Shown here in pieces: positions 61-29,112 of a stretch of DNA of 44,565 nt. Each line of letters starts with the position of its first letter. Positions within the stretch are counted from its first letter, which is position 1. The notes beneath the pieces are model-generated. The model did no database searches and had not been told where the DNA came from. It worked only from the letters and a program-made list of their open reading frames with translations. The DNA lies in the sequence record SRR20825010_2427; one strand, written 5' to 3'. A program made the position numbers and the translations under genes.

Positions 61-1089
61 TCAGCTTTCCAACCAGTCCTCAACATAGATCTGTTTGATC
101 CAAAGCATGCTGACCGCGAACATCGGCGTCGCGAAAACGATCCCCCAGAAACCAAAGACCAACCCTCCGATGATCTGCGCCAAAATCACCATCGCGGGTG
201 GCAGCTCGACTTGGTGTTCCTGAACCATCGGTGTGATGAGGTAGCTTTCGATCGTTTGGATCACCAGATAGAGGACCAAAACGCTAATGAGCGCGGTCGA
301 TCCCTGTTGCGATGCCAGCAACAATGCGGGCACGACGGCGGCGATGCCACCGATGTTGGGAATGAAGGTTACCAAGCCTGCGAACACGCCCAGTTCCAGC
401 GGCATTGGAACGCCAATCACAGCCAACCCGATTCCGAATACGATTCCCACCAATGCCATCGCAATCAAACGACCAATCATCCAGCGCCACAACGTGGTAG
501 ACGACTGAGACAGCAAATCTGACGTCTTCTCACGCCATCCGGTTGGCAGCATCCGAATCGCACCCACTCGGTATTTGTCGGGACTGAGAGCGAAGTAAAT
601 CGAAAGGATCAACAAGATCAAAAAGTCCGCCATCCCGCCAAACGCTGATGCAAAGAAATTCTTGGCCAACCCGATGGATTTTCCTGAAGAAGGCATCATG
701 GAACTGAGCTTGGCATCTTCTTCGAGGTGATCTTCAACGAGTGGTTGCTGCTTGACCGATTCAAAAGTTTCCTGGACTGAATTCTCAATCCGGTCTTTAA
801 ACTGAGCCGCTTTCTGAGCCGCCGAGTTCGCGAACGAGTACATTGTCAGACAGGATAACACCGCGATCGTGAAGATCACCAAACCAACTCGTGTGGTACG
901 CGATAGATCCAGCGGAACCCATCGCGCAATGAGATCTGCCAATTGGTTCAAAACAACCGCAATGAGCACCGATCCAAAGATTAGTGGCAACAAGTTGCGA
1001 GCGACATAGAGCAATCCCGCGGTCGCAACGACCAGCAAAACAATGCCGCTGGCCAAGAGAACGCGTCGTGAAAAAGCGGCGTGATCCAT
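61..1089 (-). CDS. AI-2E (UPF0118/PerM) family transporter
   Basis: 342 aa multi-TM protein with family motifs FIPNIG, QTIESYLITPMV and FGFWGIVFATP; start overlaps the upstream stop. Confidence 0.9.
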   Translation of the reverse strand: MDHAAFSRRVLLASGIVLLVVATAGLLYVARNLLPLIFGSVLIAVVLNQLADLIARWVPLDLSRTTRVGLVIFTIAVLSCLTMYSFANSAAQKAAQFKDRIENSVQETFESVKQQPLVEDHLEEDAKLSSMMPSSGKSIGLAKNFFASAFGGMADFLILLILSIYFALSPDKYRVGAIRMLPTGWREKTSDLLSQSSTTLWRWMIGRLIAMALVGIVFGIGLAVIGVPMPLELGVFAGLVTFIPNIGGIAAVVPALLLASQQGSTALISVLVLYLVIQTIESYLITPMVQEHQVELPPAMVILAQIIGGLVFGFWGIVFATPMFAVSMLWIKQIYVEDWLES

Positions 1090-2420
1090 CAGGATTCACT
1101 TTCTTCGGTTTGGGTGGGACGGTGATGGCCTGGACCATTGTTCTCAACAACCGACTCAGTCGTTTTGAAACCAACGTGTTCAGGGTTTTTAAATGTCAGT
1201 GTGCGATACGGGAATGGAATTTCAATTCCGGCGGCGTCCAAATCTCGCTTGATTGCTGCGACGACTTCATCGCGACTTCGACGGATATCCAGCGGTTTGG
1301 ATCCAGCCCACCAAGCGACCTCAAAATTGATGCTCGAGTCAGCAAACTCCTTGGCAAAAACCTCTACGGTCCGCTTCCCTTGCACCGTCTCACATGACTG
1401 CACCGCCTGCTTGATCACATCGCGAGATTGGTCGACATCTTCGTCGTAGGCAACGCCGCAAATGATGCGAACTCGCCGCTGCGGCTGGCTGGTCAACACA
1501 TCGACGTTGTTCTTGAACAGAGTCGCATTCGGCACGACGGCCAATTCGCCATCCAGCTTTCGAATCAGCGTGTTGCGGATGGTGATTTGCTTGACTTCGC
1601 CAGTCAGATCACCACATGTGATGAAGTCACCGCGATCGAACGGATATCCCCAAAGAATCAGGATTCCAGCGAAGAAATTCTCGAAGATGTCTTTGAAGGC
1701 AAAACCAATCGCAACCGATCCCAAACCCAAAACGGTCAATGCTTTGGATGGAGTCATCCCTGGAAACGCGACCACCGTCGCGATCAACAATCCCACGATC
1801 CAGATCGCGATCGAAGACAGTTGGTTGACCAAATCCTTCAGACTGGTACGCATCCCGCGATTGTCGAGGAGCCGATGAATGATCCAACTCGCAAGTTTCG
1901 ACAGCAACGAAGTCACCAACACGACGAACAGCGCGGCAACCAAGAGTGGCGATCGAACCAGAAAATCAGTCCACAACGAGTCCAATGACTTGGTTACCAC
2001 CTCACGCGTCGAGGCGAGGTCAACGGCGCTGTCAATGGAGAGCTCGTTGATCACCGCGACAACATCTTCGGTTTTGCGAGCCACATTTTCTGCCCACTGA
2101 CGATGTTCCTCCGTGTCGGCTTGCCCGCGAATTGTCACGATGCCGCTCTGCAGTTCGACTTCCGCGTCGGACAACCAACCTGCTTCTTTGGCCGAGTCAA
2201 AGATCTTCGTCAACCGATCGCGTATGGCATCGTCGTCGCTGATATTTTGCACCGAAACGGTTTCCGCCGGTGCGTTGGTGTCTTCCACCGGTTCCGCTTC
2301 ACTCGCTTCTTGCGCAGAAACTCGATTCACCGCAACTGAGATACAAAGCATGATGACTAGAACGAAGACGTACCGAATCGTCTTGTATGCCCAGTCACTC
2401 CAACGCGACTCGCCACTCAT
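1089..2420 (-). CDS. BON domain + MscS small-conductance mechanosensitive channel
   Basis: Periplasmic BON-like segment (GIVTIRG...VVAVINEL) then MscS core (IGFAFKDIFENFFAG, PFDRGD, VPNA, GIEIPFP). Start trimmed to ATG 2420; 2438 is also possible. Confidence 0.9.
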   Translation of the reverse strand: MSGESRWSDWAYKTIRYVFVLVIMLCISVAVNRVSAQEASEAEPVEDTNAPAETVSVQNISDDDAIRDRLTKIFDSAKEAGWLSDAEVELQSGIVTIRGQADTEEHRQWAENVARKTEDVVAVINELSIDSAVDLASTREVVTKSLDSLWTDFLVRSPLLVAALFVVLVTSLLSKLASWIIHRLLDNRGMRTSLKDLVNQLSSIAIWIVGLLIATVVAFPGMTPSKALTVLGLGSVAIGFAFKDIFENFFAGILILWGYPFDRGDFITCGDLTGEVKQITIRNTLIRKLDGELAVVPNATLFKNNVDVLTSQPQRRVRIICGVAYDEDVDQSRDVIKQAVQSCETVQGKRTVEVFAKEFADSSINFEVAWWAGSKPLDIRRSRDEVVAAIKRDLDAAGIEIPFPYRTLTFKNPEHVGFKTTESVVENNGPGHHRPTQTEESES

Positions 2421-2427
2421 TTGGAAA

Positions 2428-3696
2428 TCAGTTTTCATCTTCGAGGGCCTTTTCGAGATCGCGGATGGGTTCTTCAATCAGCTCATTGAGCGGCTTGCAG
2501 TTCGAGATTTCAATCACGCGTTTCATTGATTCGATGAAGTAGATCGACGCATTCCGATCGTTTCTGACATACGGAACCAATTGCCAAAGCATCGATTGAA
2601 CGAAGTCCGCACGCGTCACTTCGGTCGTGATGATTCGCAATTCGTCTTTTTCATCCATTCGGTAGCGGGTGGGGAGCTTTCGTTGTGACAACTGCACCAA
2701 TCCATCCGACAACCAGTCGATACACTGCATTGCGGTGAACGGGTCATTCACACCAGGCGACAACGCACGCGTCGCGACTTCCACAAACTCATTCAAGATG
2801 AAAAAGACATCCTGAGTTGGCGTTCGCGAATATCCGATCGCGAAACCGTGGCGTACTTTCTTCGCATGTTCTTCATTCCATTCAGCCATGCGAGTCACCT
2901 CGGCGATGATTTCGCTGCGCCGGACGAAATCGCCCGGACGCTTGATCAAACGCACAACCGCGGATTGCTCCTTTGCAAATTGGATCAGTTCATCATCGTC
3001 GATCCCTTGCAGATAGCCGGTCACATCGGAACGAACCGTGTGCAAAAAGTCGCTGGACAAACTCGGAACCTCTTGCTCCTCGTCCAACGCTTGTCCAACA
3101 GTCTCGGGATACAGCTCATCGAACTTCTCCGACATGTCGATCGCCAAACGACGCAGCACCGTCGAAATATGGATGCTGTCGGGCACATGGTGGATGAAGT
3201 AGATCAGTTCACCAACGCTCGCAATCGTCAGCACGAGACTCACGAACAGCGAAAGTTGTGGGACAAAGGCCTCAACAGATAACTCCCAACTTTCCGGCAC
3301 GGCACCGCCGCGGACGACTCGCAGCACTAAAAGGCAATACAAAAACGTCGCGACAAAGGTACCGAGCGTGATCTGATTGCCACGATCTCGCATGAAGTTG
3401 TCCAGCAACCGTGGACCGAAGTGCGACGTCGCGTGCGAGACCGCCAAGATCGTTAGTGAAAATGTCACGCCCGCCACGGTGATCATGGATCCCGCGACAG
3501 TTGCCAGCAACGCACGTGCTCCATCGGGTTGGTTCATTGATGTGAACCAGTATTGTTGCAACCAAGCGTTGCCGACGGTCCGATCAATCCAAATGGTGAC
3601 CTGCGACAGCACGATGGCGGACAGCACCATCAGCGATGGAATGAACCAATAGCTTCCTTTGATTCGATACAGTAGTTGTTGGAGGTAGGCCTTCAT
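2428..3696 (-). CDS. DUF2254 family membrane protein
   Basis: SYWFIPS, GSMITVAGVTFS, FGPRLL and RALSPGVNDPFTA motifs; ATGA overlap with the upstream gene. Confidence 0.88.
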   Translation of the reverse strand: MKAYLQQLLYRIKGSYWFIPSLMVLSAIVLSQVTIWIDRTVGNAWLQQYWFTSMNQPDGARALLATVAGSMITVAGVTFSLTILAVSHATSHFGPRLLDNFMRDRGNQITLGTFVATFLYCLLVLRVVRGGAVPESWELSVEAFVPQLSLFVSLVLTIASVGELIYFIHHVPDSIHISTVLRRLAIDMSEKFDELYPETVGQALDEEQEVPSLSSDFLHTVRSDVTGYLQGIDDDELIQFAKEQSAVVRLIKRPGDFVRRSEIIAEVTRMAEWNEEHAKKVRHGFAIGYSRTPTQDVFFILNEFVEVATRALSPGVNDPFTAMQCIDWLSDGLVQLSQRKLPTRYRMDEKDELRIITTEVTRADFVQSMLWQLVPYVRNDRNASIYFIESMKRVIEISNCKPLNELIEEPIRDLEKALEDEN

Positions 3697-5114
3697 GCAA
3701 TCAGGTTCGCCTCACCCTCGACCGTTTCATCGTCTTCCGTTGCCCGCAAGACTTCGGTTTGCTCGGCACCCAAGTCACCTTCGCCAACGGAGGTGGTTGG
3801 CTCTTCGGCCGGCTGAGACTTTTCGGGCAATGCTGGCGGTGCTGCTGGCAATTGCTCCACCATTTGAACGGGCACGCCTCGTGGGAACACCAATTCCCGT
3901 GCCTCGTCGGGCATACTGATTCCAGCTTCGGTCAGCTTCTGTTTCACCAGCCGAATCACGCTGCTGCTTACCTTCAACGGTGAATGAGTCGTTTGGTCGA
4001 ACCAGTAATACACCCGCAAGTTCACCGTGGCGGACCCGAGCGATTCAACGATCGCGATCGGAGCCGGATCGTTCACGACCCCAATGTGATCGTCCAGGAC
4101 CGACATGACGATTTCTTGAGCTTCCACAATCGAATCTTCAAACCCGATCCCGACAGTGAAGTCGCGTCGACTCAGTGGTGTTGCTGTGTAGTTGATGATT
4201 TTGCCTTTGTAGACCGTGCTGTTTGGCATTTGAATTTGGTTGCCGTCCAAAGTGTTCAGCACCGTTCCCCGAGTCGTAACTTTGCGGACGAAACCTTTGG
4301 CTCCCTCAACTTCGATCAAGTCACCCACGCGGAAAGGATGATTCAGCGATATCAGAATGCTGGCCAAGTAGTTTTCGGCGATGTCGCGGAAAGCGAAACC
4401 CAAGGCCAAACCGACCAATCCAGTGCCGCCCAACAAGGTGACCGCCAACCTGGTCAACCCGGACACACGCAACGCGACATAGACACCGATGATGAAGATC
4501 AAAACCCCGACAACATTGCCAACGACTTGCCGTAAAAGGGAACTATCGATTCGCGAACGAGTGAACCAGCGTGTCAGTCCTGCACCGGCGCGAGCCAGGA
4601 AGTAAGACAAAATCGCGACTGCCAGAGCAACCAATACCAGCGGCAACACACCGGTTGCTTCGCGGCCAAGCTGTTTCAATGAAGCGATTGCCGGTGCGAA
4701 ATTCCAAAGCGGGAGCTCCGCCACCTTCAATCGATTGACTACCGCGACCACGTCCGATGTTTTGATTGCGGTCGCCTCCGCCCAATCCCGGTGGCTCTTT
4801 GTGTCCGAGGTTCCACTTAGAAAAGCGACACCGCGATCAACCTTCACCTCCGGATCCGTGAACCAACCGGTCGCTTCCATGATCTCTTGCAACCGTGTCT
4901 CGATCCGTTGATCGCTATTGATTGGATCAACCTGCACTTCGTCTGCAACCTGCACGGCATTCTTGTCGCCTTCTTGGCCATCACCCGTCACCTCTGCGGC
5001 AATGTCATCGGCCGTCGGAGTATCGTCTTGGGCAACTGCGTTTCGTGCGTTAAGACCAACGAGCAGCGCGAGCCCCAACAGCAACCCGCGAAAACAGACA
5101 ATCGATCGAGACAT
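3693..5114 (-). CDS. BON domain + MscS mechanosensitive channel (second paralogue)
   Basis: Signal peptide, BON-like segment (GVAFLSG...VVAVVNRL), then LGFAFRDIAENYLAS, PFRVGD, MPNS. Confidence 0.9.
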   Translation of the reverse strand: MSRSIVCFRGLLLGLALLVGLNARNAVAQDDTPTADDIAAEVTGDGQEGDKNAVQVADEVQVDPINSDQRIETRLQEIMEATGWFTDPEVKVDRGVAFLSGTSDTKSHRDWAEATAIKTSDVVAVVNRLKVAELPLWNFAPAIASLKQLGREATGVLPLVLVALAVAILSYFLARAGAGLTRWFTRSRIDSSLLRQVVGNVVGVLIFIIGVYVALRVSGLTRLAVTLLGGTGLVGLALGFAFRDIAENYLASILISLNHPFRVGDLIEVEGAKGFVRKVTTRGTVLNTLDGNQIQMPNSTVYKGKIINYTATPLSRRDFTVGIGFEDSIVEAQEIVMSVLDDHIGVVNDPAPIAIVESLGSATVNLRVYYWFDQTTHSPLKVSSSVIRLVKQKLTEAGISMPDEARELVFPRGVPVQMVEQLPAAPPALPEKSQPAEEPTTSVGEGDLGAEQTEVLRATEDDETVEGEANLIA

Positions 5115-5405: not shown

Positions 5406-6077
5406 TCAGAAGTCGACGCGATTGTTCTTGCTGTCAAAGCGTGCTTCGTAATCGATCTGCACCAGATAATCTTTCAGAGCAACCAATTCACGGACGTCTA
5501 ACTCATCTCGGATTGAATCGATCGCTTCTTCCATCCGTTTCACCATGCGGTGAACTTTGATAAAGTCAAATTCCTGGTACTGAGCATCGGGTTGGTAGCG
5601 TTTCGCGAGCGTTCGCTCGATTGGACGGCGGTAAGGTTCCAGAACCGGACTGTCCAAAGGTTCGGGCCAATAGATCTCTCCGGTATCTCGCTTGATTTGA
5701 TTTTCGTTCAAGCGATCAGGCTTTTGCTTGTTCGCAATCTTCATTCGATCCGATGCCGACATCCGGTCTTCTTTCAGTTGCTCCTCTCGAAGCTTCTTGA
5801 TGTCGTAGTACAGCTCGACCGATTCTTTTCGGTTTTCGAGTTGCTTGGCGATGGCTTCCTGAAAGCGTTCCGCAGACAGGGATCGCAGTACGGCACCACG
5901 TCCCAGTCCCTCCGCTAGATCGCCCCGTGATTCCAGGATGTCACCGGCCGCGGTTGATGCTCCGTCGTTGTCGAACAGCCCGTCGTCGGCACTTGCGACC
6001 GTGATCGCGAACATCACGGTCAGTGCCGTGGCCACAATCGCCACGGCGGCGTGTCGCGAGTTGGTTGAATGTGTCAT
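5406..6077 (-). CDS. Secreted hypothetical protein
   Basis: 223 aa; signal peptide ending ASA-DD; helical charged body; sigma54 motif about 50 nt upstream. Confidence 0.8.
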   Translation of the reverse strand: MTHSTNSRHAAVAIVATALTVMFAITVASADDGLFDNDGASTAAGDILESRGDLAEGLGRGAVLRSLSAERFQEAIAKQLENRKESVELYYDIKKLREEQLKEDRMSASDRMKIANKQKPDRLNENQIKRDTGEIYWPEPLDSPVLEPYRRPIERTLAKRYQPDAQYQEFDFIKVHRMVKRMEEAIDSIRDELDVRELVALKDYLVQIDYEARFDSKNNRVDF

Positions 6078-6127: not shown

Positions 6128-6143
6128 CGCAAACACCGTTCCA
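6128..6143 (-). promoter_or_regulatory. sigma54 -24/-12 promoter candidate
   Basis: Minus strand TGGAACGGTGTTTGCG (GG-N10-GC) upstream of 6077. Confidence 0.7.
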
Positions 6144-7617: not shown

Positions 7618-8106
7618 TCAGGCTTCGTAACGTTCAATCGAAACGGGGTCGCATGTCTTCAACGTTTGAGCGGCAGTGTTGAGTTTGCCCTTGTCCCCTT
7701 CCACCACGATTAGCGACGAACCGGCGTTCAGGTTGGACTCGTAATTGGCACTAGCTTTGTCGTCCAAACCCCATGCCTTAATCGAAGCGAGCAAGCCGCC
7801 ACCCACCGCTCCAGCAGCCATGCCTGCAATCGGCCCGGCAACAAGAAATGGCCCGATCATTGTCGGTGCTGCCAACAACGCTCCGATGGCACCTCCAGCT
7901 AAAGTCGCTGCACCGGTCGTTTTTTCAGCGGGTGGCGACGAGGCCATGTCTCCGCTGGCGTTCTCGCTCGTAACTTCATGCGGATGCTCAGCCGCCGTGA
8001 TGACACTGAAGTCATCCGGCGTGTATCCATCCTTTTGAAGGGCCTCAACGGCGACCGCCAACTTTTTGCGGTCGGAATACTCTGCGACAAGGCATTGTTG
8101 ACTCAT
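7618..8106 (-). CDS. General-stress/glycine-zipper membrane protein (17M/DUF1269-like)
   Basis: Ferredoxin-like ends (AVEALQKDGY...SVI; YESNLNAGSSLIVV) around a Gly/Ala zipper; AGGAG RBS. Confidence 0.75.
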   Translation of the reverse strand: MSQQCLVAEYSDRKKLAVAVEALQKDGYTPDDFSVITAAEHPHEVTSENASGDMASSPPAEKTTGAATLAGGAIGALLAAPTMIGPFLVAGPIAGMAAGAVGGGLLASIKAWGLDDKASANYESNLNAGSSLIVVEGDKGKLNTAAQTLKTCDPVSIERYEA

Positions 8107-8168: not shown

Positions 8169-8624
8169 TCAGTCTTCACGTTCGGCTTCAAACAACATCA
8201 CCTTGCTGCCCTTGGGAGACTTGAACTCCTTTGGGCGATCTGCGCCGGGCAATGCGTAACAAATTTCAAATTCATCGCCTTCTTCCATCTTGATGATCCC
8301 GAACGACTTCATGGGAGGCATCCCTTTCATCTCGGTCGTCATGTCAATGTGAACGGGCTTCTTGGTTTCGTCGAGCGTGAACAGGGCGCGATAGACTTCG
8401 CGTTGTTCTCGATCGTAGGTGACGATCATGTTCTTCTCGATTTTCATGATTGTTCCTTCCAGTTCCTTTTCAGGAATCTCCTCGCCTTGGTTCACTCCCT
8501 CCTCAACTTCCCAAACGCCCGCCAGTCGTTTCAGCATGGGCTGGGTGTGTTCGTCGGCCTGAACCGGAACAACGGACGCAAACAGGAGGCAGGGCAAAAC
8601 GGCGAGCATTGTGTAGCGTGGCAT
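8169..8624 (-). CDS. TIGR03067 planctomycete domain secreted protein
   Basis: Signal peptide, LAGVW, LDETKKPVHIDM, GII, ICYALPGADRPKEFKS; GAGGA RBS before ATG 8624. Confidence 0.85.
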   Translation of the reverse strand: MPRYTMLAVLPCLLFASVVPVQADEHTQPMLKRLAGVWEVEEGVNQGEEIPEKELEGTIMKIEKNMIVTYDREQREVYRALFTLDETKKPVHIDMTTEMKGMPPMKSFGIIKMEEGDEFEICYALPGADRPKEFKSPKGSKVMLFEAERED

Positions 8625-8759: not shown

Positions 8760-8775
8760 CGCAATCGCCATACCA
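8760..8775 (-). promoter_or_regulatory. sigma54 -24/-12 promoter candidate
   Basis: Minus strand TGGTATGGCGATTGCG upstream of 8624. Confidence 0.6.
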
Positions 8776-9040: not shown

Positions 9041-9056
9041 TGGCCCGCGATATGCG
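9041..9056 (+). promoter_or_regulatory. sigma54 -24/-12 promoter candidate
   Basis: TGGCCCGCGATATGCG about 70 nt upstream of csbD. Confidence 0.65.
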
Positions 9057-9124
9057 TTTGTCTCCTTCCGCCATCTCAGACGAGATCGCAACCGAGACAA
9101 CACACATTTAAAGGAGTTCAACTC

Positions 9125-20075: not shown

Positions 20076-20867
20076 ATGCAAGACTCGAACAAAGATCCAG
20101 TATTGTTTCGCCACAGAGCGACCGCCTACGGAGTGCACGTGCTCACCGCCTCGGGGATCATTCCAGCATCATTGGCGATGCATGAAATCATCCAGTCCGA
20201 TTGCGATCCGCGTCGCGTATTCGTTTGGTTGCTGCTGACCACGTTCATCGACGCAATTGATGGTCCGCTCGCGCGACGATTTCGAGTTAAAACGCTCGCA
20301 CATTCAATCGATGGACGAACCATCGATGACTTGCTCGACTACCTCACCTTTGCATTCATTCCATTGATGCTAGTTTGGCGAATGAATTGGCTACCCGAGG
20401 GACTTGGTTTCACCGTCGCGATTGCGATGGGTGCCAGCCTATTCGGGTTTGCTCATCAAAATGCCAAGGACGAGCAAAACGGGTTCTTCCGCGGATTTCC
20501 TTCGTACTGGAACGTGGCCGCGTTTTATGCTGGTTTGCTGCACCACTGGTGGGGTCCCTGGCCGGTCGCGGTCATGATCTGGGTGTTGGCAGGATTAACG
20601 GTCACACCCATCTGGCTGATCTACCCCAACCTTGCACCGTCGAAGCATCGAACTTGGTTGCTAGCTGGTGCGGGCATCTGGGCGTTGTTGCTCGTCGCCA
20701 TGCTACCACTGTACCCTCAACCGCCAAGCTGGCTGGTTTTGGTCTCTCTCGTCTATCCGATTCTGTACTCAGCAGCGTCCTTTGCATTGAGACGAAATCG
20801 AACGTTCGAGTTGGATGACTCAACTGAACGGCAAACTTCTTCGCGAAAGCCTTCTGCGGCATCGTGA
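20076..20867 (+). CDS. pcs: Phosphatidylcholine synthase-type CDP-alcohol phosphatidyltransferase
   Basis: VHVLTASG; DG-x2-AR-x12-G-x3-D-x3-D (the long Pcs-type spacing); FRGFPSYWN. Confidence 0.78.
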   Translation: MQDSNKDPVLFRHRATAYGVHVLTASGIIPASLAMHEIIQSDCDPRRVFVWLLLTTFIDAIDGPLARRFRVKTLAHSIDGRTIDDLLDYLTFAFIPLMLVWRMNWLPEGLGFTVAIAMGASLFGFAHQNAKDEQNGFFRGFPSYWNVAAFYAGLLHHWWGPWPVAVMIWVLAGLTVTPIWLIYPNLAPSKHRTWLLAGAGIWALLLVAMLPLYPQPPSWLVLVSLVYPILYSAASFALRRNRTFELDDSTERQTSSRKPSAAS

Positions 20868-20922: not shown

Positions 20923-20938
20923 TGGCACATTGTTCGCA
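20923..20938 (+). promoter_or_regulatory. sigma54 -24/-12 promoter candidate
   Basis: TGGCACATTGTTCGCA about 39 nt upstream of ATG 20977. Confidence 0.65.
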
Positions 20939-20976: not shown

Positions 20977-21471
20977 ATGCCAACCACACCGCCCCACGAT
21001 CCTGAACAATCTCGCAGGTGCGTGATTGCGGACGATGTTCGCGTCATCCGAGAGCAATTGGGACAATGGATGCGAGAACTCGGCTACTCGGTCGTGCATG
21101 CATCCTGCGGTGCGACGGCCCTGGCTGAACTCCGCCGACAATCACCGGACATTGTGATCGCTGACATCGATATGCCGCATCTCAGCGGGTTGCATTTGCT
21201 GCAAACGGTGCGATCGGACGCCGACCCGAAAGTCGCGGCAATTCCCGTCATTGTCTCCAGCAGTTTGGAAGACGGCGAGATTCAGCGGATGATCGGCACG
21301 TTGGGCGGAAGCGCCTATCTGAAGAAGCCGGTCTCGAAAGAACAGCTTTGCGCGTGCGTGAATTATCTGACTCAGGGCAATACAACGATTCCTCTGGGTG
21401 AAAACACATCGGCATCGCATTCGGTGTCAGCCCGCTTTCGCCGGATCGCATCGGAGTTTCGCGAATTCTGA
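20977..21471 (+). CDS. Single-domain response regulator (CheY-like)
   Basis: IADD, IADIDMP (phospho-Asp), YLKKP. Start trimmed to ATG 20977. Confidence 0.88.
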   Translation: MPTTPPHDPEQSRRCVIADDVRVIREQLGQWMRELGYSVVHASCGATALAELRRQSPDIVIADIDMPHLSGLHLLQTVRSDADPKVAAIPVIVSSSLEDGEIQRMIGTLGGSAYLKKPVSKEQLCACVNYLTQGNTTIPLGENTSASHSVSARFRRIASEFREF

Positions 21472-21724
21472 TATGCAGTACATGCTCTACGACGCCGAAT
21501 CCACTGGCAACTGTGTTGGCGATGGTTGAAACCATGCCACGCTGACCGAATTTCAGTCAGGCATCAGAGTTCCGCAGGCAAACCCGCAGTCACCATGGCC
21601 GCGTGCTGGAACGGCATAGTTTCTATATTTGATATCATCAGCTCGTCGCTTCCCTCGCAAGTAGCCTGATTCGTGGAAGCAGCCTGGTTAGATTGACAGC
21701 GCAGCCCGCACTCTTACACTAAAA

Positions 21725-21740
21725 CGGCACTCCGTTTGCT
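21725..21740 (+). promoter_or_regulatory. sigma54 -24/-12 promoter candidate
   Basis: CGGCACTCCGTTTGCT upstream of the hybrid kinase. Confidence 0.75.
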
Positions 21741-21913: not shown

Positions 21914-24900
21914 ATGGCTGACACCAAAGCTTCCCAGAATATTTCGTTCGGCTCAGAAACCGAGGACGAAGATGATTCTTCGACCTCGAGCGGAACGCAC
22001 CAGCACGTCGTCGGCATTGGGGCATCGGCCGGCGGACTCGAAGCACTCGAACAACTCTTCGGCAAAATGCCGGTCGCCACGGGGATGTCCTTCGTCGTCG
22101 TTCAGCACCTGTCGCCCGACTTCAAAAGCCACATGGATGATTTGCTCCGGCGAGTCACAGATATCCCGGTCGAAGTCGTCGACAATGGAGTCGAGGTTCA
22201 GCCCGACACGATCTACTTGATCCCCGCCAAAAAGGAAATGGTCATCAGCAACGGCAAGTTGTTGCTGACCGACCGAGGAAGCGAAAAGATCCTTACGCAT
22301 CCCATCGATCAATTTCTGCGATCGCTGGCGCAAGATCTCCGTGAACGAGCCATCGGGATCGTTCTATCTGGGACCGGCAGCGATGGCTCCCGCGGCGTCG
22401 TCGAGATCAGCAACAACGGCGGATTGGTTGTGATCCAGGATCCGATGACATGCAAGTTCGATTCGATGCCAATGAATGCCCGAAACACCGGGCACGTCGA
22501 TATGGAACTGGCTCCCGACAAAATGGGAGAGGCTCTGCAACAATATCTCTTCGATGGGCAGCGAACCAAAGCGGATCAGCCTATCAACATGGGCGAAATT
22601 CAGCGTTCGGGATTGGAACGCGTTTTTCAACTGCTCAAGAAGAATCATGGAATCAACTTCCACCACTACAAATCTGGCACGGTTCATCGTCGCATTCAGC
22701 GACGGATGGACTTGTTGCATCTTGACACGCTCACTGAGTATGTCGCTCACATCAACGAACATGCCGACGAAGTCAACGAGCTTTATCGTGACCTATTGAT
22801 CGGCGTTACCAAGTTCTTTCGTGATCGTGAGGCATTCAGTGTTCTCGAACAACGCGTCATCCCTGAGCTGATCGAAAAAGCAAAAGATACGATTCGCATC
22901 TGGGTCTGCGGTTGTGCAACCGGCGAGGAAGCCTACACGATTGCCATGTTGATGCGTGAAGGCATCGAGCAATCCGAACGGCACGTTGACTTCAAGATGT
23001 TCGCCACCGACCCGCACCGCGGCTCGTTGCAAATCGCAGCAACAGGAAGTTATTCCGACGCCCAAATGAGCGAAGTATCGCTGGAACGCCGCGCACGCTT
23101 TTTCACAAAGCGTGAATCGGGCTACGTCGTCAAGGATGAGCTACGTCGATGTGTCGTCTTTGCAGCTCAAAACGTCATCAACGATCCACCGTTCACGCAA
23201 ATGGATCTGGTGTCTTGCAGGAACATGTTGATCTACCTGCAATCGCCGGCTCAACGCAAAACACTTTCGCTGTTTCACTTTTCGCTCAAAGCCAACGGAA
23301 TCTTGTTTCTGGGCCCGAGCGAAAGCGTGGGTGATATCGGCGACGAGTTTGATGCAATCAACACGCAGTGGAAGATTTTTCGCAAACGACGCGACGTTCG
23401 CTTGCCGATCGAGTTGCGAATGCCTTTGGCTAATCAATCGGTTTCACCGGTAATGCCGCAGACACCTTCCATCGTCGAACCGCCACCGCAGCGGCGGAAT
23501 GAAAACCTGCTGGAGATCTACAACGTCTTGCTGGCGGACAAGATGCCACCAAGCTTGGTGATCGATACGGACTACCGGATCATCCATGTCTTTCCGGGTG
23601 CCAATCGATATCTGACCGTTCCCAGCGGCACACCGTCAGACAATATCCTTCACATGGTCCCGAAGGAATTGCGTGCATCGATCGGTGCCGCGGTCACGCA
23701 AGCGATCAAGCAACAGAGCGCCGTCCACTACCAAGGCATCCCTTCGCCGGTCGACGGCCCCGACCACATTCTGGAATTGATCGTCGAGCCATATCACGTC
23801 CCAAAGCTCGCGTCCTCGTGCGTGCTGATTCAATTCAAAGCATCTGAAATGCGCACCGCATTGGGTGATGCATTGACCACAAGCAATGAGTCCACTGAAT
23901 CCGAAGGCACCTTGTTGGACTTTTCGACCGCGGCACATTCGCGAATCGAAGATTTGGAACAGGAACTCAGTTTCAATCGGCAAAACCTGCAAGCCACGAT
24001 TGAAGAGCTAGAGACTTCCAACGAAGAATTGCAAGCGACCAACGAAGAAATGGTCGCCAGTAATGAAGAGCTTCAAAGCACCAACGAAGAACTGCAGAGC
24101 GTCAACGAAGAGTTGTACTCGGTCAACGCGGAGCTTCAAGTTCGTGTGAACGAAGTGAATGAAGCAAACGCCGACATGGTCAACTTGTTGGCAACGACTC
24201 GTGTTGGCGTCGTGTTCTTGGACGACGACCTCCGTGTTCGAAGGGTCACGCCTGAAATCTCTCGTTTGCTTTCGATCGAACCAAACGACCTGGGACGCTC
24301 CTTTGAATCCTTCATTCACCCTATCCAAGACGACCAGTTTCTTGAACGCGTACGGCAAGCTCGCGATGAGCGAGTTGAATTGGAATGGGAAGTCAGCTGT
24401 CGCGATTCTTCCTACTTGGTCCGCGCCCTTCCGTATCTGCGAAACTCTGAGATCAACGGCGTCGTCATAGCGTTTGTGGACGTTGACATTTTACGCCGTG
24501 CCGAACGAGACGTATTGAAGTTCAAGTTCATGGCGGACCAGAACATCGACGCATTGGTTTTGCTCGATCAAAAAGGAAAGATCAGCTACGCCAATCGCAA
24601 GATGTGCGATCAACTGGGTTACTCAAACGAAGAAATCCTTGGACAACTACTTTCCCGTTTCAAATCAGAAACCGACCCCAAATCGTTCGACGATCGGCTC
24701 GAGAAAGCTCATGCGAAAAGTGGCAATCTTTTTGAGTCTTGGCTTCAACAACGCGACGGAACAGAGTTCCCCGTCGAGGTTGCGTTAACGCCAGTCTTCT
24801 TACAGGGCAAACAGCTTTTATTTGCATCGATCCGCGATATTTCTCTTCGCAAGACCCATGAATCGCAGATGCGATTGCTCAGCGAAGCGGTTCAGTCGGC

Positions 24901-26827
24901 TGCCAACGGAATCGTCATCACGGATTGCTCCTTGGAAGATCACCCGATCTCGTTTGTGAACAAAGGCTTCACTGACATGACTGGGTTCTCCGAGCAAGAG
25001 ATCATCGGTCGCAATTGTCGATTCTTGCAAGGAGAACACACCGACAAAGAAACCGTTCTGAGAATCCGACGGGCTCTTGGCCGTGGTGAATCGGTTCGCG
25101 AACTGATCAAGAACTATCGCAAAAATGGCGAGCCATTCTGGAACGATCTCTACATCACCCCGGTTCACGATGAAAACGGCATCCTGACTCATTTTGTCGG
25201 TGTTCAAAACGATGTGACCGAACGCATCGAAGCGGCTCGTCAAACGGAAACCAACGAGCGGACCATTCGATTGTTGCTGGATTCGACCGCCGAAGGGTTG
25301 TTTGGTTTAGACGTTGACGGCAAATGCACTTTCAGCAACGAAAAAGCAGCCCGACTGCTGGGCTACGAACACGGCAGCCAGATTGTTGGCAAGGAACTCG
25401 CGGAACTCGCGCAACCCTGCGATCCCAATGGAAATCCGTTTGAGAAAGATTCTTTGCAAATTCTCGGTGCGGTTCGTGCTGGCGAAGCGATCAACCGGTA
25501 CGACGAACGTTTTTGTCGCAAAGATGGCGAAAGCTTCCCTGTTGAATATTGGTGTCATCCAATCCAAGAGGATGGGAAGATTGTCGGAGCCGTGGTGACC
25601 TTCGTCGATATCGAAACCCGACTGCAGGTCGAGAACGAATTGCGAGAAGCAAAGCTGGCAGCCGATGCTGCTAACGAAGCGAAGAGTCACTTCCTTGCCA
25701 ACATGAGTCACGAGCTGCGGACGCCTCTATCGGCCATCCTTGGTTTCACCAAAATCCTTCAGGAAGATCCCGACGAAGGCACCATCCAAGAATACTTGTC
25801 AACGATCCAGCGAAACGGAGATTACCTGCTCCGTCTGCTCGGCGACGTCCTCGACCTGTCACGGATCGAAGCGAACAAATTCACCACCGCGACCAGCAGC
25901 GTCTCATTGGGTGAACTCCTGGCCGACATTTTCGAAACAATGAAAATGCGAACCCAGGACTACCAAAACACACTGCACTTTGACGTCAGCAAACCACTTC
26001 CAAGGACAATCACAACCGACTCCGCGCGGCTACGTCAAATCATGATCAACTTGATTGCCAACGCGATTAAGTTCACTCCGAAGGGCCGAGTCGAAGTGGT
26101 GGTGCGATCCGAAAAGATCGACGACGACTCTTTCTTGTTGTTGAAAGTCATCGATGACGGAATCGGGATTGCGGACGAGAAATTGCGAACGCTGTTTGAG
26201 CCGTTCGTCCAAGCGGACGCGACCATCTCAAATCGCTTTGGCGGCACCGGACTGGGACTCAGCATCACCAAACGCCTCACCAATGCGTTGGGTGGGACGA
26301 TCCAAGTCAGCAGTACCGAAGGCGAAGGAAGCGAGTTCACTATCCGATTGCCAGTCGATCCGATTGGCACCATGGACCAGCTGACGATCGAATTGACGGA
26401 TGAAAAGGACAACGACAATTCCAAGTCATCACTCGACCAAGACATCCAGCTCAACGCACGAGTTTTGATTGCGGATGACATGCGAGACGTTCGCTTCGTG
26501 GCCCAACACTTTTTGAAGAAAGCGGGCTGCGAAGTGGAAGTTGCTGAAAACGGAAGGCAGGCCGTCGACATGGTCGTGGCGGCGAGCAGAGATGGTAAGC
26601 CGTTCGAACTTTGCCTGATGGACATGCAGATGCCCGAACTGGATGGACTTGGGGCCGTGCGAGAACTTCGCCAACGAGGGATCGAGTTGCCGGTGATCGC
26701 GTTGACGGCTGATGCGATGAAGGGCACCCGTCGCCGTCTCATCAGTGAAGGCTTTGACGAGTACTTGAGCAAACCATTGAAGGTCAACTGTTTGCTACGC
26801 ATCGCGAAAGGTTTGCTAGACGCCTGA
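21914..26827 (+). CDS. CheB-CheR-coiled coil-PAS-LOV-PAS hybrid histidine kinase/receiver
   Basis: CheB GASAGG/VQHL/GSDG; CheR GCATGEE/SCRNMLIY; NEEL heptads; LOV GRNCRFLQG; H-box SHELRTP; N/G boxes; REC LMDMQMP. Confidence 0.95.
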   Translation: MADTKASQNISFGSETEDEDDSSTSSGTHQHVVGIGASAGGLEALEQLFGKMPVATGMSFVVVQHLSPDFKSHMDDLLRRVTDIPVEVVDNGVEVQPDTIYLIPAKKEMVISNGKLLLTDRGSEKILTHPIDQFLRSLAQDLRERAIGIVLSGTGSDGSRGVVEISNNGGLVVIQDPMTCKFDSMPMNARNTGHVDMELAPDKMGEALQQYLFDGQRTKADQPINMGEIQRSGLERVFQLLKKNHGINFHHYKSGTVHRRIQRRMDLLHLDTLTEYVAHINEHADEVNELYRDLLIGVTKFFRDREAFSVLEQRVIPELIEKAKDTIRIWVCGCATGEEAYTIAMLMREGIEQSERHVDFKMFATDPHRGSLQIAATGSYSDAQMSEVSLERRARFFTKRESGYVVKDELRRCVVFAAQNVINDPPFTQMDLVSCRNMLIYLQSPAQRKTLSLFHFSLKANGILFLGPSESVGDIGDEFDAINTQWKIFRKRRDVRLPIELRMPLANQSVSPVMPQTPSIVEPPPQRRNENLLEIYNVLLADKMPPSLVIDTDYRIIHVFPGANRYLTVPSGTPSDNILHMVPKELRASIGAAVTQAIKQQSAVHYQGIPSPVDGPDHILELIVEPYHVPKLASSCVLIQFKASEMRTALGDALTTSNESTESEGTLLDFSTAAHSRIEDLEQELSFNRQNLQATIEELETSNEELQATNEEMVASNEELQSTNEELQSVNEELYSVNAELQVRVNEVNEANADMVNLLATTRVGVVFLDDDLRVRRVTPEISRLLSIEPNDLGRSFESFIHPIQDDQFLERVRQARDERVELEWEVSCRDSSYLVRALPYLRNSEINGVVIAFVDVDILRRAERDVLKFKFMADQNIDALVLLDQKGKISYANRKMCDQLGYSNEEILGQLLSRFKSETDPKSFDDRLEKAHAKSGNLFESWLQQRDGTEFPVEVALTPVFLQGKQLLFASIRDISLRKTHESQMRLLSEAVQSAANGIVITDCSLEDHPISFVNKGFTDMTGFSEQEIIGRNCRFLQGEHTDKETVLRIRRALGRGESVRELIKNYRKNGEPFWNDLYITPVHDENGILTHFVGVQNDVTERIEAARQTETNERTIRLLLDSTAEGLFGLDVDGKCTFSNEKAARLLGYEHGSQIVGKELAELAQPCDPNGNPFEKDSLQILGAVRAGEAINRYDERFCRKDGESFPVEYWCHPIQEDGKIVGAVVTFVDIETRLQVENELREAKLAADAANEAKSHFLANMSHELRTPLSAILGFTKILQEDPDEGTIQEYLSTIQRNGDYLLRLLGDVLDLSRIEANKFTTATSSVSLGELLADIFETMKMRTQDYQNTLHFDVSKPLPRTITTDSARLRQIMINLIANAIKFTPKGRVEVVVRSEKIDDDSFLLLKVIDDGIGIADEKLRTLFEPFVQADATISNRFGGTGLGLSITKRLTNALGGTIQVSSTEGEGSEFTIRLPVDPIGTMDQLTIELTDEKDNDNSKSSLDQDIQLNARVLIADDMRDVRFVAQHFLKKAGCEVEVAENGRQAVDMVVAASRDGKPFELCLMDMQMPELDGLGAVRELRQRGIELPVIALTADAMKGTRRRLISEGFDEYLSKPLKVNCLLRIAKGLLDA
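24002..24136 (+). repeat. Degenerate 21-nt coding repeats (NEELQST heptads)
   Basis: EELETSNEELQATNEEMVASNEELQSTNEELQSVNEELYSVNAEL within the kinase. Confidence 0.8.
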
Positions 26828-26846: not shown

Positions 26847-26889
26847 TTGAATGGAAGCTTTCAGTGTTTCCATTAACCACAGAGCATTC

Positions 26890-28074
26890 ATGTCTGAACC
26901 GAAACCGGAATCTTTCCAAACGGACTTGCGTAGTTGGCTGACTCGAACCGCATCTTCCGCCGATGATGTGGCCGACATGGCGATCCGTCGCATTCGCAAG
27001 CGTTGGGGACGCGCCGGCGTACCCCAGATACAAACCTACACCGGATTCGCGACGGCAGACACGATTCATCTACGAGGACGGATTCTCAACAACCCACCGC
27101 TGGATCCAGATTTCCACAACGATCGATGGTGGCAGAACCTGGCGCACACGTGGCGTCGGTTCGCCAGCGACGAGGTCCCCGGCGTCACGATCGAAGGATC
27201 CTTCGCGGGCGTGACAGGACGAACCGTCAGCGACAGCGAAGGGTACTTCGAACTCGACATCCCACGCACAGCCGACAACAGCGAATTTGCATTTTGGATG
27301 CCTGCACAACTCGCAATTGTGGACGACGATCGAATTTCACCGTTGGAATCGTTCGCTGTTTGCGACGTCATGCACGTTTCATCCGATGCGAAGTATGCCG
27401 TCGTCAGTGATGTCGACGACACGATCCTTCGAACGGGCGCGACCGACATCGGCACGATGGCAAAGCTAACTTTCTTCGGCAACGCGAGAACTCGAGCCCC
27501 GCTCGAAGGAGTCGCATCGCTGTACGAATGGATGCAACACAACGGCCAACGTTTTGGATCTCCCGTCAATCCAATCTTCTACGTTTCGTCTTCGCCGTGG
27601 AATCTCTACGACTTGCTCGAGGATTTCTTAGAACTCAACGCAATCCCCAAAGGCCCGTTGTTCTTGCGCGACCTTGGAATTGACGACGACAAATTCATCA
27701 AGCAAGGACATGATCGCAAGCTTGAACAAACTCGATACTTGATGAACGCGTTTCCCCATTTGCCGTTCGTATTAGTTGGCGACTCGGGGCAAGAAGACGC
27801 TCGTCTTTATGCAACTGCGGCAGAGGAATTCGGTCAGCGTATTCCCGCGATCTTCATTCGAGACATTGATCCAGAGACGATGAGCAACCACGACGAGAAA
27901 GTCGATCGTTACACCAAACAAAGCGCCGCGGCCGGTGTCCCAATGCATTTGGTCAAGGACAGTATCGAAGTCAGCGCGATCGCCGAAGAGCTTGGGCTGC
28001 TATCGAAAGACATTCTGCCGGCGATCGAAGAAGCAACCCGCCGCGATCACGATCGCAAAAGCGGGCTGCTCTAG
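26890..28074 (+). CDS. App1 family (DUF2183) phosphatidate phosphatase-like protein
   Basis: VVSDVDDT (DxDxT), FYVSSSPWNLY, GPLFLRD, LVGDSGQED, IFIR. Confidence 0.88.
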   Translation: MSEPKPESFQTDLRSWLTRTASSADDVADMAIRRIRKRWGRAGVPQIQTYTGFATADTIHLRGRILNNPPLDPDFHNDRWWQNLAHTWRRFASDEVPGVTIEGSFAGVTGRTVSDSEGYFELDIPRTADNSEFAFWMPAQLAIVDDDRISPLESFAVCDVMHVSSDAKYAVVSDVDDTILRTGATDIGTMAKLTFFGNARTRAPLEGVASLYEWMQHNGQRFGSPVNPIFYVSSSPWNLYDLLEDFLELNAIPKGPLFLRDLGIDDDKFIKQGHDRKLEQTRYLMNAFPHLPFVLVGDSGQEDARLYATAAEEFGQRIPAIFIRDIDPETMSNHDEKVDRYTKQSAAAGVPMHLVKDSIEVSAIAEELGLLSKDILPAIEEATRRDHDRKSGLL

Positions 28075-28120: not shown

Positions 28121-29047
28121 CTACGCCGTGGTTGCTTTGGTATCTCGTTTGATCTCTTCCACCACGCGAACGGCTTTGGGTTCGGGTCGAATCCCATCGC
28201 CATAGCGGACCGCGTAAACCTGCGTGGCTTCCGCACCGAGCAGAACGATCATGGCGGTGTAGTAAACCCACACCAACAGCACGGCCAACGAAGCGGCTGC
28301 GGCACCGAGCTGTGCCCCGGGTTCACTCATCGAAAAATACAACTGCATCGCGTAGCGGCCGACCAAAAATAGGATTGTCGTCACGGCGGCTCCAACAGCC
28401 ACATCTCGCCATTTGGTGATCGCGTCGGGCATGAACTTAAAAATGGAAGCGAAGATGACGAAGACAACCAATGCCTGAACGGCAAAGTTTGCTAGATGAG
28501 CGACCGTTTCTGACATCCCAATCCAACCACCCACTTGATCACCCAAAGCGGTCAAAACCGAAGAGACGACCAATGAAACCAGCAGCAGAAAGCCCAGACC
28601 CAAGATCATCCCAAAAGACAAAAATCGTTTCGCGATCATGTCTTTGATGCCGCTGTTTTCGGGATCGGGTTTCACTTCCCAAACCTGATTCAGTGCTGCT
28701 TGCAATGCGGAGACCACACCCGTTGCACCAACCAAAATCCCGGCAAAACTCAGCAGCGTTTTCCACCACTTCCCTGAGGTCTGCTCGTGGTTCTCCATGA
28801 TGGTCTCAATCTGTTCGACCGCCGCGGGATTACCAATCATCTGAGAAGCCTGCGTCTGCAAAATCCCCTGCGCCTTTTCGGTGGCCTGCTCACTGTCGTA
28901 CATCACCGACAAGCTGAACGTCAGCACCGTCATCATCAGATACAGCAGTGGAGGCAGTGCGAACGCGGTGTAGTACGCCAACGCAGCCGCTAGCGTGCTG
29001 CAACGATCCTTTGAAAACTCCGAAAATACTTGCTTGAGAAAACCCAC
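28121..29047 (-). CDS. YihY/BrkB family membrane protein
   Basis: AAALAYYTAFALPP, ALNQVW, LLVWVYYTAMIVLLGAE. GTG start inferred, because the track's longer start overlaps the promoter motif. Confidence 0.9.
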   Translation of the reverse strand: MGFLKQVFSEFSKDRCSTLAAALAYYTAFALPPLLYLMMTVLTFSLSVMYDSEQATEKAQGILQTQASQMIGNPAAVEQIETIMENHEQTSGKWWKTLLSFAGILVGATGVVSALQAALNQVWEVKPDPENSGIKDMIAKRFLSFGMILGLGFLLLVSLVVSSVLTALGDQVGGWIGMSETVAHLANFAVQALVVFVIFASIFKFMPDAITKWRDVAVGAAVTTILFLVGRYAMQLYFSMSEPGAQLGAAAASLAVLLVWVYYTAMIVLLGAEATQVYAVRYGDGIRPEPKAVRVVEEIKRDTKATTA

Positions 29048-29096
29048 AACTCCACCACTCGATTGAAAGGAAAAACGACCACCTCTTTCCCTTAAC

Positions 29097-29112
29097 AGCA
29101 ATCGTCGTGCCG
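29097..29112 (-). promoter_or_regulatory. sigma54 -24/-12 promoter candidate
   Basis: Minus strand CGGCACGACGATTGCT about 50 nt upstream of the YihY gene. Confidence 0.8.

Follow-up and report, generated by a model that had tools for sequence, protein, structure and literature searches.

How planctomycetes organise their common stress response is an open question, and we asked what answer might be offered by a 44,565-nucleotide stretch of DNA from sequence record SRR20825010_2427 (hereafter the window), in which genes of stress-type families surround a sigma-54 activator and a stand-alone histidine phosphotransfer (Hpt) protein between positions 61 and 29112. The circuit that the cluster offers consists of a single activator with its Hpt, some ten promoters and a candidate light sensor. 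Our preferred reading, to which we assign a probability of about 55%, is that it is a chromosomal stress-protection cluster with at least ten sigma-54 promoters and a LuxO/LuxU-like relay in its middle. The domains of the encoded proteins, the placement and conservation of the promoter motifs and the linkage of the genes were established in silico, and from sequence there is a strong case for a stress cluster under sigma-54 that has the activator-Hpt pair at its core.

The 44.6-kb window is colinear from end to end with positions 2,286,001-2,330,566 of G001, a complete genome of 7,145,576 bp in one contig, at 97.4% nucleotide identity, and whole-genome context was read from G001 as a stand-in for the window's own genome. 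Near-identical public proteins carry Rhodopirellula names (baltica, europaea and bahusiensis groups), and by its sequence the window is ordinary chromosomal DNA of a Rhodopirellula strain, a marine planctomycete. A mobile island is ruled out by the colinearity with G001 together with an even GC content of 51-58% along the window, and the locus is therefore better described as a cluster than as an island.

A preliminary description of this DNA had counted 12 sigma-54 motifs in the region. Using the pattern TGGCACN5TTGC with at most one mismatch, we found 14 sites in the window, eight of them within 61-29112, compared to 3.86 +/- 2.16 sites in 100 shuffled sequences, none of which reached 14, and to 4.3 sites expected per window from the rate in G001 (690 sites in 7.15 Mb; Poisson P = 1.6e-4). 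A relaxed scan that demanded the invariant GG and GC and at least 8 of 10 bases returned 25 window sites, 11 of which are intergenic when 15.6% of the bases are (binomial P = 7e-4), and the reversed pattern, run as a control, returned 22 sites with two intergenic. All 11 intergenic motifs are co-oriented with the next gene, ten of them lie within 61-29112, and these ten are positioned 39-174 nt from the start of that gene. The units that they head are the gene for a 223-aa secreted protein, a TIGR03067-DUF1269 pair, the csbD operon, the activator gene, the gene for a small membrane protein, csrA, a lipoprotein-pmp3-yetF-EEP-transferase unit, a receiver gene, a kinase-APP1 unit and yihY; the motif of the activator perhaps drives the Hpt gene too. 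Sigma-54 motifs are thus present in the region, the count falls to ten that are well placed, and csrA, with a motif of its own, had been missed earlier.

Sigma-54 cannot initiate transcription without an ATP-driven activator, and a gene for such a protein stands in the middle of the cluster on the plus strand (annotated start 13942; long open reading frame (ORF) 13861-15405), preceded by motif TGGCCCGAAAATTGC at 13777-13791. Its product matches the Pfam domains Response_reg (E 1.9e-25), Sigma54_activat (E 7.9e-70) and HTH_8 (E 2.1e-10) and contains both GAFTGA and the receiver aspartate motif LLDIQLPD, a domain composition by which it is an NtrC-type (group I) sigma-54 enhancer-binding protein. 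It scores under every NCBIfam equivalog cut-off, the best being NtrC (TIGR01818, 454.9 vs 558.6 bits), with LuxO at 343.6 vs 800 bits. G001 encodes a single rpoN (one Sigma54_DBD match, E 1.7e-62) and 16 strong sigma-54 activators, among which the nearest paralogue of the cluster activator is 48% identical; the cluster activator is the only one within the 120 kb examined. The 3' end of the activator gene (window ~15290-15310) also holds a TGGAACG..TATGTGC-like match, found as well in G015, G050, G064, G068 and G119, 155-229 nt before the Hpt gene. Judging from the codons it spans (Met-Glu-Arg-x-Val), this match more likely reflects coding conservation than a promoter, an explanation that counsels caution over motif counts in coding DNA.

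The next gene downstream (15554-15907, plus strand) encodes a protein of 117 aa with a GHALKG histidine motif, which the preliminary description had named an Hpt. This protein misses the Pfam PF01627 threshold (E 0.09; 13.5 bits vs a gathering cut-off of 24.6), and two of its 13 homologues carry a precomputed PF01627 assignment. Nonetheless, H-x-x-K-G (His58, Lys61, Gly62) is invariant in all 12 aligned sequences, all five matches of the alignment profile in the PDB are Hpt or CheA-P1 domains (E 0.0012 to 0.6), and the family profile matches one bona fide PF01627 domain of G001 (E 4.5e-7). An AlphaFold2 model of the protein is an all-helical bundle with a pLDDT of 95, and in Foldseek its top ten matches are Hpt proteins without exception (TM-scores 0.49-0.70), with weak E-values of 0.04-0.11, as is usual with small bundles. 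Motif, profile and modelled fold therefore uphold the Hpt assignment despite the sub-threshold Pfam score, and we accept the product as an Hpt with a predicted function in phosphotransfer. It is the only stand-alone Hpt gene that two queries found in G001, where seven PF01627 matches sit in six large multidomain ORFs.

A sample of 120 other genomes of the family contained 13 with an orthologue of the activator (59-82% identity), the next best match being 54% identical. We analysed 30-40 kb around 11 of the 13, excluding G029 and G063 because of short contigs or a contig end. The Hpt gene adjoins the activator gene in ten of these 11 genomes and was not found in G011 with the same query; by sequence, the activator-Hpt pair is conserved in at least 14 Pirellulaceae genomes. 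In six of the 11 (G025, G067, G078, G062, G064 and G111) the pair is itself adjoined by the csbD/128-aa/YqjE-like/89-aa operon, and the operon's motif (GG-N10-GC) is present in all six, 61-109 nt before csbD in five and at the corresponding position in G111. When six csbD upstream regions were aligned (G111 excluded), the -24/-12 motif emerged as the sole conserved block.

A gene-by-gene survey covering up to 350 nt upstream of homologous loci extends this pattern. The motif precedes yihY at 14 of 22 loci (G001 included), and at six of six close orthologues outside G001, and it precedes MscS genes at seven of 14 loci, two of them with strong sites, compared to two of 30 loci for KAS, a control gene from the window's right half; the corresponding Fisher P values of 1.4e-5 for yihY and 2e-3 for MscS are overstated, as kin are not independent. 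None of 15 operon-internal genes has a motif within 330 nt. Single loci with high-scoring motifs include a DUF1269 homologue in G050 (10/10, 101 nt upstream), the M20-GCS2 pair of G011 (9/10, 38 nt upstream) and receiver homologues beside the kinase in G011 (10/10) and G067 (8/10). In G050, G015 and G119 the activator has a motif-bearing homologue of the small membrane protein gene next to it, and csrA near the activator has an 8/10 motif in G067 and none in G064 and G078.

The surroundings of the activator likewise recur in rearranged form. About 21 kb of G067 hold a LOV kinase, a receiver, APP1, MscS, the csbD operon, DUF4235, the activator, the Hpt and CsrA; G064 brings together MscS, the csbD operon, a DUF2254-MscS pair, the activator and the Hpt; G025 has yihY, a LOV kinase, a second hybrid kinase, the Hpt, the activator and the csbD operon; and G011 has a CheB/CheR kinase, a receiver and the activator, with M20-GCS2 and a yihY copy ~24-28 kb off. 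Linkage that is kept while order is shuffled argues for functional coupling, and comparison across relatives, which the preliminary description had proposed as a synteny search, favours a genuine regulon, since activator and Hpt stay together and the same gene content returns in shuffled order in other genera.

What might feed the activator-Hpt pair? The preliminary description had pointed to a LOV-containing CheB/CheR hybrid kinase, and both Pfam and the motif GRNCRFLQ confirm such a protein, of 1637 aa, at 21914-26827 on the plus strand, downstream of motif CGGCACTCCGTTTGC (21725-21739). Its domains follow the order CheB_methylest-CheR-PAS x4-HisKA-HATPase_c-REC. The LOV string occupies residues 1032-1039 (nt 25007-25030), with the cysteine at Cys1035, is enclosed by a PAS_9 match at residues 999-1103, and is followed downstream by FWN and QNDVT strings, which have a role in LOV domains. 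A PAS domain with GXNCRFLQ and an adduct-forming cysteine answers to the sequence definition of LOV, and the kinase is accordingly a predicted photosensor; we know of no characterisation of the role that the CheB and CheR modules play in such hybrid kinases. Upstream of the kinase gene, on the same strand, lies a gene for a single-domain receiver (REC; 20977-21471) with motif TGGCACATTGTTCGC at 20923-20937.

Across the relatives, the kinase is the more variable component. Five of the 11 genomes have a hybrid kinase within 12 kb of the activator (G025, G011, G067, G068 and G111). That of G025 is a full orthologue, 57% identical and with GRNCRFLQ, and is accompanied by a second hybrid kinase without the LOV motif; that of G067 is a CheB/CheR protein of 1743 aa, also with GRNCRFLQ; that of G011, a CheB/CheR protein of 2055 aa whose gene directly adjoins the activator gene, lacks the LOV motif, as do those of G068 (684 aa) and G111 (1324 aa). 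A LOV-bearing kinase near the activator is thus confined to three lineages (window/G001, G025 and G067). By these comparisons the activator-Hpt module is the conserved core around which kinases vary, and such variety around a constant module fits a hub that takes several hybrid kinases. It is plausible on the same grounds that light is a lineage-specific input rather than a defining one, and we have moderate confidence that the LOV kinase would be one input of the cluster. Each related genome encodes several CheB/CheR-fused hybrid kinases of 1000-2300 aa.

A link to stress comes from the DNA left of the window in G001. There, a perfect motif, TGGCACGGTAGTTGC, lies 67 nt before a 156-aa DUF2383 ORF, TGGCCCGGCGTTTGC lies 33 nt before an 89-aa Hva1_TUDOR ORF that heads a row of genes for a short-chain dehydrogenase, a 162-aa ferritin/Dps and a 160-aa product, and another perfect motif precedes a gene for a pyridoxal-phosphate-dependent enzyme, likely a cysteine synthase. 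By length, strand, order and isoelectric point (pI), ORFs 8-50 kb left of the window fit RB4347, RB4429, RB4433 and RB4438 of R. baltica SH1T; the motif stands directly before the RB4347- and RB4429-like ORFs, and the counterparts of RB4433 and RB4438 lie downstream of that of RB4429. In the portions of the array study available to us, Table 1 has all four in its set of 62 genes whose expression heat, cold and high salinity each induce, and RB4432-4438 are termed a general stress cluster (Wecker et al. 2009, PMC2754498). The same portions describe many co-induced genes but no regulator found for them, list several transposases among the commonly stress-induced genes and mention a proposed sigma-54 promoter before the thioredoxin gene RB10378 (PMC2754498).

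These data may reach into the cluster itself. In the available text, heat shock raises expression of histidine kinase RB4511, and heat, cold and salt each induce RB4510, a minus-strand gene of 49 codons (49 aa) (PMC2754498). Between the receiver and kinase genes of G001 (G001:C1 2307508-2307657; window ~21511-21660) lies a minus-strand ORF of 49 aa that fits RB4510, an inexact match in that its computed pI is 7.8 vs the published 9. Because this ORF precedes the kinase gene, as RB4510 would, RB4511 is probably the LOV kinase of the cluster, judging from gene order and length. Instead of encoding a protein, the ORF may be the trace of an antisense or read-through transcript. In the literature searched, tags of the RB4511 and RB4433 type occur only in PMC2754498 and in one unrelated match.

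In the circuit that we propose, at least ten sigma-54 (-24/-12) promoters would drive transcription of the cluster, and a LuxO/LuxU-like phosphorelay with genes in the middle of the cluster would control them. At least one hybrid histidine kinase would autophosphorylate and hand the phosphoryl group on to the receiver at its own C-terminus, from which it would move to the stand-alone Hpt and on to the receiver of the NtrC-type activator (13942-15405), which would then remodel sigma-54 RNA polymerase at the cluster promoters. This order (kinase His to REC Asp to Hpt His to activator Asp) is the standard reading of the domains, and its second half is supported by the adjacency of Hpt and activator in ten of 11 genomes. 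The predicted outputs would comprise small membrane and stress proteins (CsbD, YqjE-like, DUF1269, Pmp3, YetF, YihY and small TM proteins), enzymes of lipid remodelling (EEP, the CDP-alcohol transferase and APP1), M20/GCS2, CsrA and probably the MscS channels. The signalling genes may be outputs as well, creating feedback: with three of the ten motifs lying before the activator, receiver and kinase genes, the circuit would self-amplify. In this lineage the most likely input would be the LOV CheB/CheR kinase, encoded 6.5 kb downstream, and the single-domain receiver beside it may act as a sink or modulator that drains phosphate or carries a second output. We infer each phosphotransfer step, the pairing of activator and promoters, the inducing signals and any role of light from these observations.

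If this circuit operates as proposed, gene families that elsewhere are under SigB, RpoS or EcfG can sit under sigma-54, a regulator would be tied to genes already known as heat-, cold- and salt-responsive, and the cluster would contain a natural LOV-to-sigma-54 switch; should the sigma-54 part alone be true, a function would be gained for an uncharacterised conserved activator-Hpt pair. A wider version would have sigma-54 run the common stress response of Rhodopirellula and related Pirellulaceae, in which one Hpt collects from many hybrid kinases, LOV kinases included, for one NtrC-type activator, which in turn serves a super-cluster of ~85 kb (2.23-2.315 Mb in G001) of classical general stress proteins, namely CsbD, Dps, DUF2383, Pmp3, YihY and MscS. 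That version is tentative, and we consider it somewhat doubtful; if true, it would represent a third general stress architecture beside partner switching (SigB, EcfG) and RpoS.

Parts of the proposed wiring resemble known systems. In Vibrio quorum sensing, the hybrid kinases LuxN, LuxQ and CqsS signal through the Hpt protein LuxU to LuxO, a REC-AAA+-HTH sigma-54 activator. The cluster would share the four-step relay logic, has a small stand-alone Hpt gene directly after the activator gene, and could likewise have several hybrid kinases converge on one Hpt. By its NCBIfam score, however, the cluster activator is no LuxO orthologue, its predicted outputs are protein-coding stress genes rather than the Qrr small RNAs, and its candidate input is a LOV/PAS sensor rather than an autoinducer receptor, so that by analogy the relay would work like LuxO-LuxU without being a member of that system. 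Convergence of several hybrid kinases on one Hpt is also a property of HptB of Pseudomonas aeruginosa. HptB is likewise a small stand-alone Hpt and thus a model for a possible hub, and its structure (7c1i) is the fourth-best fold match to the cluster Hpt, but it is 18% identical to it in sequence and feeds a partner-switching module, not a sigma-54 activator.

For the LOV side of the circuit, the closest comparison is with alphaproteobacterial LOV histidine kinases (LovK-LovR of Caulobacter and those of Brucella and Erythrobacter), which, in the sections of the reports available, feed the general stress response through PhyR-NepR-EcfG (PMC4844311, PMC11580852). As in those bacteria, the LOV kinase gene of the cluster stands beside one for a single-domain receiver, which recalls LovR, and is linked to stress-type genes. 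In contrast to them, it encodes a 1637-aa hybrid with CheB and CheR and a HisKA core, not HWE/HisKA2, and the proposed output is sigma-54 instead of an ECF sigma factor. The YtvA-stressosome-SigB system of Bacillus and Listeria, as far as described in the accessible part of PMC4844311, similarly places a blue-light LOV sensor upstream of a regulon with csbD-type genes, but it relies on partner switching on an anti-sigma factor, with neither phosphorelay nor sigma-54. A survey figure in the accessible part of the same article counts LOV proteins in Planctomycetes (PMC4844311).

The preliminary description had not been aware of any such system in planctomycetes. This holds insofar as the literature searched, which mostly did not extend to subscription journals, yielded no description of the activator-Hpt module, of its link to csbD, yihY, pmp3 or a LOV kinase, or of a planctomycete sigma-54 general stress response. 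Individual sigma-54 promoters are, by contrast, already in print: a 2025 in-silico survey reports, in its accessible text, that predicted ones are enriched before MscS, CsrA, UspA, chaperone, NtrC-like, receiver and kinase genes in Planctomycetia, and credits Studholme and Dixon 2004 with a sigma-54 promoter for csrA of Pirellula sp. strain 1 (PMC12316311). That same text makes no mention of the activator-Hpt module, of csbD, yihY or pmp3 outputs, of a LOV kinase or of a link to common stress (PMC12316311). Taken together, these comparisons suggest that the wiring of the cluster combines a LuxO/LuxU-type relay with LOV-linked stress signalling, for which there is partial in-silico precedent.

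Several observations weigh against the circuit as drawn. There is no genome-wide excess of the motif in G001, which has 34 exact sites vs 26 for the reversed pattern and 690 vs 786 at no more than one mismatch; most single matches in G001 are therefore noise, and lone sites are weak evidence. The sequence TGGCACTTACTTTGC occurs there in four exact copies (G001:C1 2221288, 2226771, 2765868 and 5759808), two of which, inverted, flank 457-aa ORFs; the copies seemingly sit in a repeated insertion element, so four of the 34 exact consensus sites are part of a repeat. Only two of ten relatives share the activator's own motif, and the MscS/AI-2E operon lacks a good one, with none of at least 8/10 directly upstream in the window and, in G001, an 8/10 site with a poor -12 element 214 nt upstream; the hydrolase gene, too, has no good motif of its own in the window. 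An exact-dyad search of the 290 nt upstream of 14 motifs revealed no shared activator-binding dyad above controls, the best candidate (TCGC-N11-GCGA) occurring in at most five promoters, two of them from one intergenic region, when control sets reach four; nothing of this kind therefore ties the ten promoters to one of the 16 activators of G001. That genome also encodes five full-length members of the sigma-70 family, among them an RpoS-like protein of 355 aa and a SigB/F/G-like protein of 274 aa; none exceeds an NCBIfam RpoS or SigB/F/G equivalog cut-off, and their presence leaves unproven the earlier proposal that RpoN acts instead of a stress sigma factor. Near the activator, no close orthologue of the LOV kinase exists in G078, G062, G064, G050, G029, G015, G119, G063 or G111. 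Searched genome-wide, G078 (a congener of G001), G062, G064 and G050 yield as best match a protein of 34-37% identity encoded elsewhere; in G029, G015, G119, G063 and G111 there is no CheB/CheR-type orthologue near the activator and strong matches lie on other contigs, while a genome-wide search of G111 at E <= 1e-120 gave no kinase match. Sigma-54 is regulated through its activators, so that a flat rpoN profile would be compatible with sigma-54 control. In the array study, as far as its text was available, rpoN itself is unchanged or down under stress (PMC2754498).

With these points in mind, one can ask whether the motifs are promoters of sigma-54 at all, or chance or sigma-70/ECF-related matches in genes read by other sigma factors, such as the ECF sigma factor encoded at 29154-29870 or group 2/3 factors. 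The missing genome-wide enrichment, the several imperfect (8/10) motifs, the recurrent TGGAAC...TGC match within the relatives' activator gene that coding conservation explains, and the ECF sigma gene abutting the cluster would all suit such a reading. It sits poorly, however, with the intergenic enrichment, the co-orientation of 11 out of 11 motifs and their narrow spacing, with the retention of the motif across genera in upstream DNA that otherwise cannot be aligned, with its frequency at yihY (14/22) and MscS (7/14) loci relative to the control gene (2/30), and with its absence from all 15 operon-internal genes, and we judge it very improbable. A different possibility grants the relay and the promoters and makes the programme a specific one, be it envelope, osmotic, desiccation, growth-phase or attachment related. 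Against it, the motif-bearing ORFs nearby fit genes for which heat, cold and salt each act as inducers, and the stress-induced neighbours encode, among others, Dps/ferritin, a short-chain dehydrogenase and a pyridoxamine-oxidase-like protein, which are typical general stress proteins of Bacillus. In its favour, the outputs are mostly membrane proteins, MscS channels, BON domains and lipid-head-group enzymes, and the accessible texts of earlier studies contain an in-silico link of sigma-54 to MscS in Planctomycetia (PMC12316311) and a proposed link of sigma-54 to the cell exterior (PMC3162934). We regard a programme of this specific kind as distinctly unlikely.

Finally, the sigma-54 cluster and its activator-Hpt pair may be real and the LOV kinase not their input. 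The kinase would then belong to a different pathway, or form with the neighbouring receiver a LovK/LovR-like pair that has a different output; the Hpt would receive its phosphoryl groups from other hybrid kinases, and the cluster would not be under light control. Consistent with this, the kinase adjoins a single-domain receiver in the window, G067 and G011, nine genomes with the activator-Hpt module have no close kinase orthologue nearby, non-LOV hybrid kinases stand beside the module in G011, G068 and G111 and as the second kinase of G025, and CheB/CheR hybrid kinases are several in each genome. Yet a CheB/CheR hybrid kinase lies at most 12 kb from the activator in four lineages (window/G001, G025, G067 and G011) and in four arrangements, when we estimate the chance of such proximity at ~2% per genome (with a few such genes in a genome of 7-8 Mb); the promoter motif of the outputs also stands before the kinase and receiver genes; and a hybrid kinase needs an Hpt, of which that of the cluster is the sole stand-alone one found in G001. 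This separation of kinase and cluster is a serious contender that we nevertheless hold to be unlikely. Returning to the stress-protection cluster with its central relay, we find that the sigma-54-driven stress system of the preliminary description stands as a cluster of stress-type genes around an activator and an Hpt, with motifs placed, oriented and conserved across genera, and that the part in which a LOV kinase accompanies the activator does not extend beyond three lineages.

The remaining genes of the cluster were assigned mainly by Pfam, which places the genes named in the preliminary description where it had put them. A DUF883 gene, which it had also named, was not recovered, as no small ORF has a match to this family at E <= 1; the YqjE-like gene named alongside it was confirmed separately. 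CsrA, DUF1269, DUF4235, YetF/DUF421, EEP, the CDP-alcohol phosphatidyltransferase, M20 and TIGR03067 are members that go beyond the earlier list or are newly named by family. NCBIfam has no family for the Hpt, the 223-aa, 128-aa, 69-aa and 89-aa proteins or the small membrane protein.

At the left end, on the minus strand, genes for AI-2E_transport (61-1089), BON-MscS (1089-2477), DUF2254 (2428-3696, between the two BON-MscS genes) and a second BON-MscS (3693-5114) likely form a four-gene operon (61-5114). Homologues of MscS and DUF2254 neighbour the activator in G064 and G067. Next on that strand come the gene for the 223-aa secreted hypothetical protein (5406-6077), which matches no family in Pfam or NCBIfam and is preceded by motif TGGAACGGTGTTTGC at 6129-6143, 51 nt from the start, and the genes for the TIGR03067 protein (8169-8624) and the DUF1269 protein (7618-8106), with motif TGGTATGGCGATTGC at 8761-8775. 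The csbD operon follows on the plus strand (9041-10917): behind motif TGGCCCGCGATATGC (9041-9055) it encodes an extended CsbD (9125-9556) and 128-aa, 69-aa, YqjE-like (10124-10642) and 89-aa membrane proteins, the YqjE-like gene matching Pfam Phage_holin_3_6. Between this operon and the activator gene, the plus strand carries DUF4235 (11036-11365), an M20 peptidase (ORF 11269-12567) and a GCS2/YbdK ligase (12654-13772).

Beyond the Hpt gene, the 57-aa small membrane protein is encoded on the minus strand (16126-16299) with the perfect motif TGGCACGATCGTTGC at 16362-16376, and csrA (Pfam E 3.9e-21) on the plus strand (16686-16910) with motif CGGCATGTCGTTTGC at 16623-16637. These divergent genes have a common intergenic region of 246 nt (16377-16622) with one sigma-54 motif per strand, possibly a bidirectional enhancer arrangement. 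A plus-strand unit at 17542-20867, headed by the perfect motif TGGCACACCGTTTGC (17542-17556), encodes a lipoprotein (17647-17910), Pmp3/YqaE (17994-18173), YetF/DUF421, an EEP-family phosphatase/nuclease and a CDP-alcohol phosphatidyltransferase. Downstream of the kinase gene lies that for an APP1-type phosphatidate phosphatase (26851-28074, plus strand), and the cluster closes with the YihY/BrkB membrane protein gene (28121-29101, minus strand; motif CGGCACGACGATTGC at 29098-29112).

Low-depth contigs of run X1 match csbD (9105-9481), parts of M20, the activator and EEP, and 17855-18149 at 99% identity or more; the last of these, at 100% identity, bridges the lipoprotein-pmp3 gap, which would indicate co-transcription only if the run is RNA, and as its type is merely guessed as RNA and may be DNA, we draw no inference from it. 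Directly upstream of yihY and on the same strand is the gene for an ECF-type sigma factor (Sigma70_r2, Sigma70_ECF; 29154-29870, minus strand), with the sigma-54 motif of yihY in between. The right part of the window (34478-42015, minus strand) encodes an RND efflux set (AcrB-type pump, membrane-fusion protein and outer-membrane factor) and an ankyrin-repeat protein, and the window motif scan gave no well-placed sigma-54 motif at this stretch. In G111, the perfect motif TGGCACGGGCTTTGC lies ~200 nt upstream of the activator gene on the minus strand, directed away from it; on that strand, the nearest homologue of a window gene belongs to the AI-2E family, with 29% identity to the window's AI-2E gene, the last one of the MscS operon, and its aligned part starts ~900 nt further on.

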